Of a stretch of DNA of 64,000 bases, positions 58,838 through 60,615 are shown piece by piece. How positions within the stretch are numbered: the first letter of the stretch is position 1; each line of letters starts with the position of its first letter. Source of the DNA: a virus; the IMG/VR virus record IMGVR_UViG_3300025102_000018, positions 1 to 64,000 of that record; one strand, 5' to 3'. A program made the translations under genes and the position numbers. Below the pieces are notes generated by a model. The model searched no databases, had not been told where the DNA came from, and saw only the letters and a list, made by a program, of their open reading frames with translations.

Positions 58838-58865
58838 TTGACAGGTGTAGTTTTTTATGTACTAT
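58838..58865 (+). promoter_or_regulatory. Sigma70-like promoter TTGACA-N16-TACTAT
   Basis: Perfect -35 and near-consensus -10 in the intergenic region before the TROVE-like gene. Confidence 0.45.
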
Positions 58866-58897
58866 TATATATCGTTTAACATTTAAAAATATTAATC

Positions 58898-60331
58898 ATG
58901 AACTTAATTGACGCTTTACAAATAAAAGATGCTGTGACAGAAAACGGAATGTCAACCAATTCGTCCCCACTGAATCAGTGTGTTAATCTATTCTTCCAAA
59001 TCGGAGCGATGAGGGGAGTAGATAAAAAAAGGTTATTTACCAAAGTTTCTAAAGCGTTCAATGAAGACCCTCTCACAACAATAAAAATTATATTTTGGGC
59101 ACGTGATGTCCGTGGTGGAGCTGGTGAGAGACAAATCTTCAGAGATTGTTTATCATGGTTATGTGACAACCATAAAGAAGTTCTACATAATAATATTCAC
59201 CTAATTAGTGAATATGGTAGATGGGATGATGTGCTTACGTTGGTAGGTACTCAAAATTGTTGGGATTCCGCGTTAGATATAGTTAAAACTGCTTTAGATA
59301 ATAAAGATAGTTTATGTGCTAAATGGATGCCAAGAAAAGGACCAAAAGCGAATATTATTCGTAGGTACCTTAAGTTATCCCCAAAACAATACCGTAAGTT
59401 ATTAGTGGGACTTACTAATGTGGTTGAAACCAAGATGTGTGCAAAGGACTGGAAAAGTATCGATTATTCGAAACTTCCATCCTTGGCCTCGTCGAGGTAC
59501 CAAAAAACTTTCATGAAAAATGATGAAAGTAGATATGAAACGTACAAACAAGCATTAGTTGATGGTGAAACAAAAATTAATGCAGCAGCGGTATACCCTT
59601 ACGATATTATAAAATCTATTAGTCATGGTGGTGAAAAAGTTGTTGCACAGGCACAATGGGACTCACTTCCAAATTATATGGAAGGAATTAGTCAAAGGGT
59701 GTTACCTGTAGTTGATGTATCAGGTTCAATGACCACTCCAGCAGGGAATAACGGTAACGTTACCTGTATGGATGTATCAACATCATTGGGCATGTATATC
59801 TCAGAGAGAAATGAAGGTGTCTTCAAAAACGCATTCATAACATTCTCTTCTAAACCACAACTACAATTACTTGAAGGTTCTTTAACCGATAGGTTAATCC
59901 AACTGGAGAGAGCAGACTGGGGAATGAATACTGATTTACAAGCAACGTTTAAGTTAATCTTGGACCAAGCAGTAAAACATAATGTTCCAGTATCCGAGAT
60001 GCCAACCAAAGTTCTTATCCTTTCGGATATGGAGTTTGATTCAGCAATCAGTGGAAACTGGGATAGTGTAACAGACTGGAACCCAACTGCACAAGAAATG
60101 ATTAAAGGGATGTATGAGGAAGCTGGTTACGAAATGCCAGGGATTGTTTATTGGAATATCCAAAGCAGACAAGACAATGTACCAACTCGTTTCGATGAGA
60201 TGGGAACGGCATTAGTATCCGGGTTCTCACCCTCAATCATGAAAAGTATCTTAAGTTGTCAGGATATGACACCTTATAATATGATGATGGAGACTATCGG
60301 GTCCGCTCGATATGAACCAATTACGGTCTGA
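58898..60331 (+). CDS. TROVE/vWA Ro60-like protein (DUF2828-type)
   Basis: TENG, FWARDVRGGAGER, EYGRWDD, AKWMPR, vWA MIDAS VVDVSGSM, FITFSS, WGMNTD, LSDMEFD, VYWN, LVSGFSPS. Confidence 0.8.
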   Translation: MNLIDALQIKDAVTENGMSTNSSPLNQCVNLFFQIGAMRGVDKKRLFTKVSKAFNEDPLTTIKIIFWARDVRGGAGERQIFRDCLSWLCDNHKEVLHNNIHLISEYGRWDDVLTLVGTQNCWDSALDIVKTALDNKDSLCAKWMPRKGPKANIIRRYLKLSPKQYRKLLVGLTNVVETKMCAKDWKSIDYSKLPSLASSRYQKTFMKNDESRYETYKQALVDGETKINAAAVYPYDIIKSISHGGEKVVAQAQWDSLPNYMEGISQRVLPVVDVSGSMTTPAGNNGNVTCMDVSTSLGMYISERNEGVFKNAFITFSSKPQLQLLEGSLTDRLIQLERADWGMNTDLQATFKLILDQAVKHNVPVSEMPTKVLILSDMEFDSAISGNWDSVTDWNPTAQEMIKGMYEEAGYEMPGIVYWNIQSRQDNVPTRFDEMGTALVSGFSPSIMKSILSCQDMTPYNMMMETIGSARYEPITV

Positions 60332-60332
60332 C

Positions 60333-60482
60333 GGGTAGACCAAAGAATCTCTTCGGCAACTTAAAACAAAACCAAGAGAGAGAGGTGGATATTGTTCCCC
60401 ACCTTGTTGAATAAATAAATTAGGGACATTTAGTCTCCGAAATCCTAAATAAAAAAGATTTTACAAATGATTCTGACTACCC
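60333..60482 (+). ncRNA. Putative structured RNA, unit 1 (Y-RNA-like, paired termini)
   Basis: GGGTAG/CTACCC and AGAATC/GATTCT closing helices with an internal bulge; TTCGGCAA motif; internal hairpins. Confidence 0.5.
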
Positions 60483-60524
60483 ATAAGACTAGACTTTACT
60501 TCGCCCACCGGCGATTTACATATG

Positions 60525-60583
60525 AAAGGAAGGCTACAGCAATCTTAATTGTAACCAAAATCAAACAAAAACCCCCTTCCTGA
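60525..60583 (+). ncRNA. Putative structured RNA, unit 2
   Basis: AGGAAGG/CCTTCCT helix; CTACAGCAA motif; same AAAG...CTGA flanks as unit 1. Confidence 0.5.
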
Positions 60584-60584
60584 G

Positions 60585-60615
60585 ACCCCCTAACTGAGAA
60601 GTTTGGGGGTTTTTT
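60585..60615 (+). terminator. Intrinsic terminator
   Basis: ACCCCC-TAAC-TGAGAA-GTTT-GGGGGT followed by a T tract. Confidence 0.75.

Follow-up and report, generated by a model that had tools for sequence, protein, structure and literature searches.

A transcription unit at positions 58838-60616 of a DNA stretch from a large marine phage probably encodes a ribonucleoprotein of the Ro60/Y RNA kind, belonging to a branch that is undescribed in Rfam and in the literature searched. The stretch (hereafter the window) comprises 64,000 nucleotides, positions 1 to 64,000 of IMG/VR virus record IMGVR_UViG_3300025102_000018, a 73.9-kb virus contig estimated to be ~23% complete. The transcription unit consists of a gene for a protein with the Pfam domains DUF2828 and DUF7788, here called Ro60-like, and of two structured elements, units 1 and 2, which lie 2-250 nt 3' of its stop codon and are both closed by terminal stems. 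These elements carry the mark of an RNA family in which a closing stem of free sequence is followed by an unpaired CAGCAA-type handle. Because this family occurred in every tested phage genome that carries the gene, the handle RNAs are most likely partners of the DUF2828 protein, as Y RNAs are for Ro60. An earlier reading of the window, made from the sequence only, had proposed a Ro60-like gene co-transcribed with two related structured RNAs, and its interpretation is supported overall by the results described here.

Anatomy of the transcription unit

The features of the transcription unit are listed below.

58838-58865, plus strand: sigma-70-type promoter; -35 TTGACA at 58838-58843, 16-nt spacer, -10 TACTAT at 58860-58865; 10 of 12 matches in a consensus scan
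58898-60331, plus strand: Ro60-like protein gene, an open reading frame (ORF) of 477 amino acids (aa) with N-terminal DUF2828 and C-terminal DUF7788 (vWA)
60333-60483, plus strand: unit 1, ~150 nt, from the fold and the comparison of orthologues
60333-60338 with 60477-60482, plus strand: outer stem of unit 1, GGGTAG/CTACCC
60345-60349 with 60469-60473, plus strand: inner closing stem of unit 1, GAATC/GATTC
60350-60359, plus strand: handle of unit 1, UCUU-CGGCAA, directly 3' of the inner 5' arm
60383-60404, plus strand: conserved inner hairpin of unit 1, AGGUGG/CCACCU, plus variable region
60501-60514, plus strand: small G+C hairpin separating the units, with a U-rich/UAUA stretch behind it, from the fold
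60527-60582, plus strand: unit 2, ~56 nt, a short canonical family member with an A/C-rich loop
60527-60533 with 60575-60581, plus strand: stem of unit 2, AGGAAGG/CCTTCCT
60534-60542, plus strand: handle of unit 2, CUA-CAGCAA, 3' of the 5' arm
60582, plus strand: invariant 3' G of unit 2
60583-60616, plus strand: intrinsic terminator, a G+C-rich hairpin followed by a U run; fold of 60490-60620 at -34.4 kcal/mol, z -4.0

The sequence-only reading had described a promoter, a gene, two structured elements and a terminator in this order, and each of them was recovered, with all its positions and motifs proving correct. The promoter was present at 58838, and its layout (GGGGCTTGACA...TAtAAT) was kept upstream of the orthologous gene in seven related loci (L003, L005, L006, L008, L010, L034 and L035). 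The gene was confirmed as the ORF at 58898-60331, and a scan of both strands of 60332-60692 found no ORF of 40 aa or more, in agreement with the non-coding stretch expected behind it. The fold of 60325-60620 was stabler than that of shuffled sequences (z = -3.0) and comprised unit 1 as a multi-hairpin element with two stacked closing stems, the G+C hairpin, the unit 2 stem-loop and the intrinsic terminator. The terminator proposed after unit 2 was missed by a simple terminator scan, although it is visible in the fold; in relatives, terminators of differing sequence were each found at the same position 3' of unit 2.

Since the layout runs from promoter to terminator, we infer that the gene and both units are co-transcribed, which is weakly hinted at by marine metatranscriptome contigs that extend from the coding sequence across the stop codon into the first ~30 nt of unit 1. 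All RNA libraries with parts of the region were marine, and the shares were small (0.10-0.13). The proposal that the region is transcribed therefore stands in a weak form for the start of unit 1 and found no coverage at unit 2, and the contigs decide neither for nor against expression of small RNAs.

The gene also had the highest G+C content at third codon positions (0.325) among the 39 plus-strand ORFs of at least 150 aa, the others ranging from 0.08 to 0.29. This bears out the richness in C-ending codons noted earlier and suggests a history unlike that of the neighbouring genes. Megablast and blastn searches of the region against 50,697 phage records gave no match, and all comparative work was therefore built on protein-anchored loci. 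The best relative with long context was a 297-kb contig.

A family of handle RNAs and its range

The family is characterised by a closing stem of 6-9 bp of free sequence, an unpaired (U)UA-CAGCAA, a variable loop, the 3' arm of the stem and an invariant G. Its median unit length is ~58 nt without flanks. A motif script that used no trained model and looked for C-N-GCAA after an arm whose complement lies downstream detected the same design beside genes of only 34-45% protein identity. The units lay upstream, downstream or on both sides of the gene, in one to four copies and often adjoining tRNA genes. In 117 loci the script placed 108 units on the gene strand at most 800 nt from the gene, compared to 6 on the opposite strand.

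A covariance model (R1) was built from 10 units of distant loci (34-45% protein identity) and contained no window sequence. An initial MAFFT alignment of 17 units had been discarded, as it set the 3' arms of the window group 4-5 columns off, and was re-seeded with these 10 consistently aligned units. R1 matched 71 times in ~100 loci (652 kb); 70 matches shared the strand of the gene, and nearly all directly flanked it. The covariation that had been proposed for the closing stem proved strong: in the alignment fitted to the model, the 8-bp stem was paired in 92.9% of cases compared to 57.5% in shuffles and 32-52% when the partners were slid, and 140 double-sided changes were counted against 37 expected from shuffles. 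Among 62 distinct units, the handle read U (52/62), A (50/62), C (61/61), A (56/60), G (60/60), C (61/61), A (62/62) and A (58/62), and the G after the 3' arm was found in 61 of 61.

Unit 2 was recognised by R1 with 27.4 bits (E = 0.003, 652 kb on both strands) and by the retrained family model (R2) with 47.7 bits (E = 1.5e-8), this being the only match in the 73.9-kb record. It was conserved in L002-L006, L010 and L034-L037. Unit 1 is accepted as a putative long member of the family with a CGGCAA variant of the handle, because its orthologues in L035-L037 (69% protein identity) have the canonical CAGCAA and both of their stems show compensatory changes, from GGGUAG/CUACCC to GAGUAG/CUACUC and from GAAUC/GAUUC to GAAUA/UAUUC. 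RNAalifold, applied to seven unit 1 orthologues, showed one compensatory change for each outer (stacked) stem and three in the inner long-range helix, with the AGGUGG/CCACCU hairpin being invariant; the fold z-score of unit 1 alone was modest (-1.9). Relatives at 72-89% protein identity kept both units after the gene, except for L002, in which the core of unit 1 was lost.

Several smaller observations concern the two units. By eye, the CGGCAA of unit 1 may pair with a UUGYYG sequence 3' of the AGGUGG hairpin, forming a candidate pseudoknot. Inspection of units 1 and 2 of the window for look-alikes of tRNA T arms or D arms revealed none, and a CGAA in a hairpin loop of unit 1 (60430-60450) was rejected as a mimic of a tRNA part since it is not conserved in relatives. 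The hairpin at 60501-60514 may act in weak termination or in processing; hairpins of other sequence occur at the same place in relatives (CGCC/GGCG, GCGG/CCGC and CGUGA/UCACG). Across 60483-60530 and the same place in L003, L005, L006, L010, L034 and L035, the small hairpin is followed by UUUAUAUA-type sequence. In L035 the inter-unit sequence reads TATAAATA, which is the T4 late-promoter consensus. Unit 2 might therefore also have a transcription start of its own, or the inter-unit site might be a processing signal.

The family was next to homologous DUF2828 genes in very different phages, as the sequence-only reading had anticipated, in whole records mostly less than 1 kb away. In five other whole records (~940 kb), all eight matches at E <= 0.01 were within ~1 kb of the gene. 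Overall, the RNA was present in 11 of 11 whole records with the gene and in none of five without it (Bas51, T4, T5, SPO1 and phage K; one-sided Fisher test, 1 in 4368). T4 and T5, which carry tRNA genes, lacked the RNA, and tRNA genes alone therefore do not bring the motif. Seven of the 11 positive records are cultured phages that had no part in model training. Among the loci of cultured phages outside model building, the family was present in Listeria phage AG20, Staphylococcus phage S-CoN_Ph7, Enterococcus phage TJE1, Mycobacterium phage Kingsolomon, Escherichia coli phage mio, Klebsiella phage KP13-16 and Bacillus phage Skywalker.

The number and position of the copies differed between these phages. 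Three units of AG20 lie in a 396-nt gap ahead of the gene, while S-CoN_Ph7 has three after it. In KP13-16 (L118:4521-5100), the DUF2828 gene is followed by a tandem array of five handle-closed units, of which three enclose T-arm and D-arm look-alikes in permuted order (T arm before acceptor/D arm); one of these three is a sub-threshold match to YrlA (39.7 bits with a threshold of 69, E 2.6e-5). In phages mio and Skywalker, copies lie between tRNA genes. The RNA copies of Va3, KVP40 and phiM7 are 6-8 kb from the gene, and Serratia phage BF carries five copies ~200 kb away. As a separate observation, L032:2012-2155, on a contig from a giant-virus metagenome-assembled genome, contains two units on the strand opposite to, and just upstream of, a DUF2828 gene of 25% identity; these are the only clear minus-strand matches and put the family in a giant-virus bin.

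The protein, the proposed particle and rival explanations

The 477-aa protein matched DUF7788 (5.5e-51) and DUF2828 (4.4e-37) in Pfam and nothing else at E <= 0.01, and in PHROGs it matched phrog_850, annotated as 'RNA-binding protein' (3.4e-151). An AlphaFold2 model made from 25 homologues of related loci (26-89% identity) reached a pLDDT of 82.6 and a pTM of 0.80. In a Foldseek search of this model against the PDB, the top 12 matches were all Ro60 proteins (phage phiLo, Deinococcus, Xenopus and human) that aligned over their full length (~500 columns) with E-values from 2.4e-9 to 1.8e-5 and TM-scores of up to 0.58. Phage phiLo Ro60 was the best match (9kop, E 2.4e-9, TM 0.55), and isolated vWA domains appeared only from rank 14. 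The model thus predicts the architecture of Ro60, a helical-repeat ring with a vWA domain. The residues of the metal site (MIDAS, DxSxS...T...D), D273, S275, S277, T345 and D377, were invariant in the 25 homologues. Of the label TROVE/vWA given by the sequence-only reading, TROVE was replaced by the two Pfam families, while the predicted fold is like that of Ro60 and the metal site of the vWA domain is intact. The name 'Ro60-like' is accordingly used for predicted fold and architecture and does not extend to Ro60 family membership by sequence. A search of the ESM Atlas returned only DUF2828 clusters, mostly viral, and was of no help regarding eukaryotic relatives. DUF2828 was carried by 711 phage records in one collection, and the publications on it in the searched literature included none about phages or RNA.

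The proposed mechanism is as follows. Transcription from the promoter at 58838 would yield an mRNA that encodes the ring-shaped Ro60-like protein, a HEAT-repeat ring joined to a vWA domain that has a metal site, and would run on across unit 1 (~150 nt) and unit 2 (~56 nt) until the terminator at ~60583-60616. After a presumed processing of the units, each RNA would have a stem joining its ends, then the unpaired (U)UA-C(A/G)GCAA handle, and a 3' end of the form ...CC-(U/A)-G. The protein would recognise the closing stem together with the unpaired CAGCAA, in parallel to Ro60 on the terminal helix of Y RNAs. The variable loops would act as adaptor or decoy modules, with tRNA look-alikes in other phages, and the particle would likely divert or inhibit host nucleases of RNA decay or defence, or else protect the tRNAs of the phage. 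The anatomy, the conserved handle, the covarying stem, the joint occurrence of RNA and gene across genomes and the predicted fold are shown here, and binding of the RNAs by the protein and a role in RNA quality control or tRNA protection are inferred.

A number of results weigh against this interpretation. Judged by sequence, the protein had no TROVE match in Pfam at E <= 0.01, and neither phmmer nor a 25-sequence profile found a Ro60 chain in the PDB at E <= 10; homology to Ro60 thus depends on a predicted structure whose TM-score is moderate. The handle has nothing in common with the helix through which Y RNAs are known to bind Ro60, and comparison of 60332-60620 with the Rfam models of Y RNA (RF00019) and YrlA (RF02553) gave no match to units 1 and 2 at E <= 10. 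Unit 1 alone was not significant with R2 (9.8 bits, E 0.61) and was the second-best match in 3 kb; the low score is due to a 101-nt insertion and the G at the second motif position. The pair counts of the closing stem come from the fitted alignment, whereas the result of the motif script is independent of the model. Furthermore, RNAs are far from the gene in some phages, so that adjacency is common and not obligatory. Finally, no RNA-library contig spans unit 2, and DNA carry-over in the libraries is possible.

The handle units could instead be processing or stability signals of tRNA operons, or decoys for tRNA nucleases, that act without the DUF2828 protein and are linked to its gene through shared placement. 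Many units indeed lie in or beside tRNA clusters, some enclose tRNA look-alikes, and 350 nt upstream of the Ro60-like gene the window itself has a tRNA gene and an aberrant tRNA-like one. We nevertheless regard this explanation as unlikely. The close relatives L003-L006, L008 and L010 have units adjoining the gene and no tRNA closer than 2.5 kb, the tRNA carriers T4 and T5 as well as Bas51 lack both gene and RNA, and the RNA follows the gene in all 11 positive records compared to none of the five negative ones. A decoy role would, in addition, be compatible with the proposed ribonucleoprotein if the protein is the carrier.

Alternatively, the units might be cis-acting elements in the 3' or 5' untranslated region of the gene's own mRNA that control its stability or translation, perhaps with feedback by the protein. 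Both units of the window are between the stop codon and the terminator of one transcription unit, most loci have their units immediately next to the gene and on its strand, and the RNA-library contigs bridge the stop codon into unit 1, all of which would be expected of such elements. They would not be expected ~200 kb away, as the five copies of phage BF are, nor at 6-8 kb as in Va3, KVP40 and phiM7, nor between tRNA genes as in mio and Skywalker. The occurrence of units either upstream or downstream of the gene also argues against cis-control, and one to five copies per locus with unrelated loops and some tRNA-like bodies fit separate RNAs better. We therefore give this explanation a low probability. 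The autoregulatory binding array that the earlier reading had offered as an alternative is likewise less likely, because of the distant copies of BF and the copies between tRNA genes in other phages. That the two elements are unrelated hairpins, similar by chance or terminator-like and without a shared function, would agree with the score and fold of unit 1 alone and is already contradicted by the comparative data, as unit 2 was found by a model from distant phages, the orthologue of unit 1 in L035-L037 has the canonical CAGCAA and compensatory stem changes, strand bias (70/71) and covariation are strong, and the units have no U tract while a separate terminator follows unit 2; we consider it highly improbable.

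The reading as a Ro60/Y RNA-kind particle can be taken further, to a version that we put forward tentatively and hold to be possible without expecting it to be right. The DUF2828 protein and the CAGCAA-handle RNAs would form a second, ancient branch of Ro60/Y RNA particles, spread over giant viruses and over tailed phages whose hosts are Gram-positive, Gram-negative and actinobacterial, with the Class I RNAs of social amoebae (see below) as eukaryotic members. The phage particle would be a programmable carrier in which the constant handle docks to the protein, and interchangeable loops, including tRNA mimics, trap or mislead host RNases and the defence systems that target tRNAs.

The Ro60/Y RNA particle has long been studied and its function is still incompletely understood, and DUF2828 is a large family lacking an assigned function. 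The handle is conserved, easily mutated and was present in every gene-bearing record tested, which makes it amenable to experiments in cultured phages, whose hosts include E. coli, Listeria, Staphylococcus, Vibrio and Mycobacterium. Handle RNAs would also explain unannotated gaps in the tRNA regions of phages and beside the DUF2828 gene. They may be part of a counter-defence device, since one Ro60-like phage protein has been reported to counter defence (PMC11482910).

Known RNA systems and neighbouring genes

Ro60 of the TROVE type with Y-like RNAs is known in mycobacteriophages and other phages (PMC4201824), bacteria have Rsr with YrlA/YrlB (Chen et al. 2014, PMC4201824; Rfam RF02553), and Thermus phage phiLo has a Ro60 with Yrl1/Yrl2 (PMC12135203). 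The transcription unit of the window resembles these systems in the ring protein with a C-terminal vWA/MIDAS domain, by predicted fold, and in one to several small RNA genes beside the protein gene. Further similarities are a stem that joins the 5' and 3' ends next to a conserved element, variable modules with tRNA mimics in some phages, and RNA-repair genes nearby. In contrast to Ro60, the phage protein belongs to Pfam DUF2828/DUF7788 and has no TROVE sequence match, and the conserved element of the RNAs is the unpaired (U)UA-CAGCAA and not a bulged Ro60-binding helix or CGAA motif. Unlike YrlA, the units of the window have no tRNA-like domain; other phages have family members with such a domain. 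Klebsiella phage KP13-16, with its handle-closed tRNA-mimic units and the sub-threshold YrlA match, provides a direct link to Y RNAs.

No Rfam family reached its threshold on any unit of the window or of eight related loci, and a search of 58000-61000 at E <= 10 returned only tRNAs and noise around the terminator. The sole YrlA match near the units of the window (19.5 bits) lay over the upstream tRNA genes. No description of a handle-bearing RNA family or of an RNA partner of DUF2828 was found in Rfam or the searched literature.

When a 101-nt stretch with unit 2 was compared to 4227 Rfam families with lax filters, the best family was RF01414, the Dictyostelium Class I RNA, with a local match of 16.3 bits (E 0.66) far below the threshold of 41.5. 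The alignment fell on UACAGCAAU...AAAAACCC, that is, on UACAGCAAU and the A-rich 3' strand; RF01414 was not among the matches for the strong units of L021. Class I RNAs are 42-65 nt long and have a short covarying stem joining their ends, a variable loop, an 11-nt motif by the 5' arm with invariant T3, C6, C9, A10 and A11, and a transcribed CUGU after the 3' arm (PMC7919456). They are reported to be unique to Dictyostelia and have their own upstream promoter element (PMC7919456; Kjellin et al. 2021), and their known direct binder is the RRM protein Rnp1A/CIBP (PMC7919456). The phage consensus gCUUACAGCAA fits all five invariant positions, and the other listed features fit too, including the 3' end C-U-G after the stem and the variable rest of the loop. 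Unit 2 (GGCUACAGCAA) fits four of the five, with C in place of U at motif position 3. This likeness suggests a protein partner and an evolutionary origin for Class I RNAs.

The gp130 protein of phage Bas63 is described as resembling Ro60 in structure, is encoded directly upstream of tRNA genes and is reported to counter the Ppl defence system (PhageMaP preprint, PMC11482910). The authors of that study guessed that some annotated tRNAs near gp130 are Y RNAs (PMC11482910). A handle-bearing RNA family like the present one was not described there. The layout around gp130 matches that of the DUF2828 gene of Felixounavirus phage mio. Bas63 and mio belong to the same genus, and on this and on the layout gp130 is a putative member of the DUF2828 family. 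That its membership is no more than putative is a further point against the proposed particle.

Two tRNA-type genes lie upstream of the Ro60-like gene, where the sequence-only reading had seen two tRNAs, the second of them being aberrant.

58386-58460, plus strand: tRNA-Arg(UCU) gene, upstream of the Ro60-like gene
58476-58551, plus strand: aberrant tRNA-like gene, directly after tRNA-Arg(UCU) and ~350 nt upstream of the Ro60-like gene

For the gene at 58476-58551, ARAGORN gave a two-base anticodon, implying an anticodon loop of 6 nt (AUUCCA), or of 8 nt if the closing pair opens. Its T loop has 8 nt (UUCGUAAU), it scored 48.5 bits with the Rfam tRNA model, and the oddity is shared by the relative L002. 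It could be a non-translating tRNA mimic. Further upstream, a 122-aa ORF (57787-58155, plus strand) has a PNKP phosphatase domain (Pfam HAD_PNKP 30.8 bits, above the cut-off; PHROG 'polynucleotide kinase') and is, by its domain match, a putative fragment of an RNA-repair-type enzyme just upstream of the tRNA genes. Listeria phage AG20 and Serratia phage BF have genes for RNA ligase or RtcB close to their homologue. The PNKP-type and tRNA-type genes upstream and the RNA ligases near homologues agree with a setting of RNA repair or of evading defence.

Between the tRNA-like gene and the promoter is an 86-aa ORF (58567-58827, plus strand) that is K/R-rich and very basic and has no Pfam or PHROG match. 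Most large ORFs of the window also had no PHROG match. The 347-aa ORF at 56518-57561 (plus strand) has Gln-synt_N and Gln-synt_C domains and falls well short of the length of a bacterial GlnA; candidate identities are an auxiliary metabolic gene and an amide ligase. The tRNA region of AG20 (L110) that holds the three handle units also contains, ~650 nt upstream of them, a ROOL RNA match slightly below threshold (L110:1422-1973, 90.1 compared to 99.1 bits, E 6.8e-17), and a gene for an RtcB-type 'tRNA splicing ligase' is located 1.2 kb downstream of the Ro60-like gene. Other structured RNAs were seen less than 2 kb from the DUF2828 genes of distant relatives, namely a HEARO RNA above threshold (L021:5750-5953, 99.6 bits) and a sub-threshold group I intron match (L015:5302-5545, 40.6 bits).

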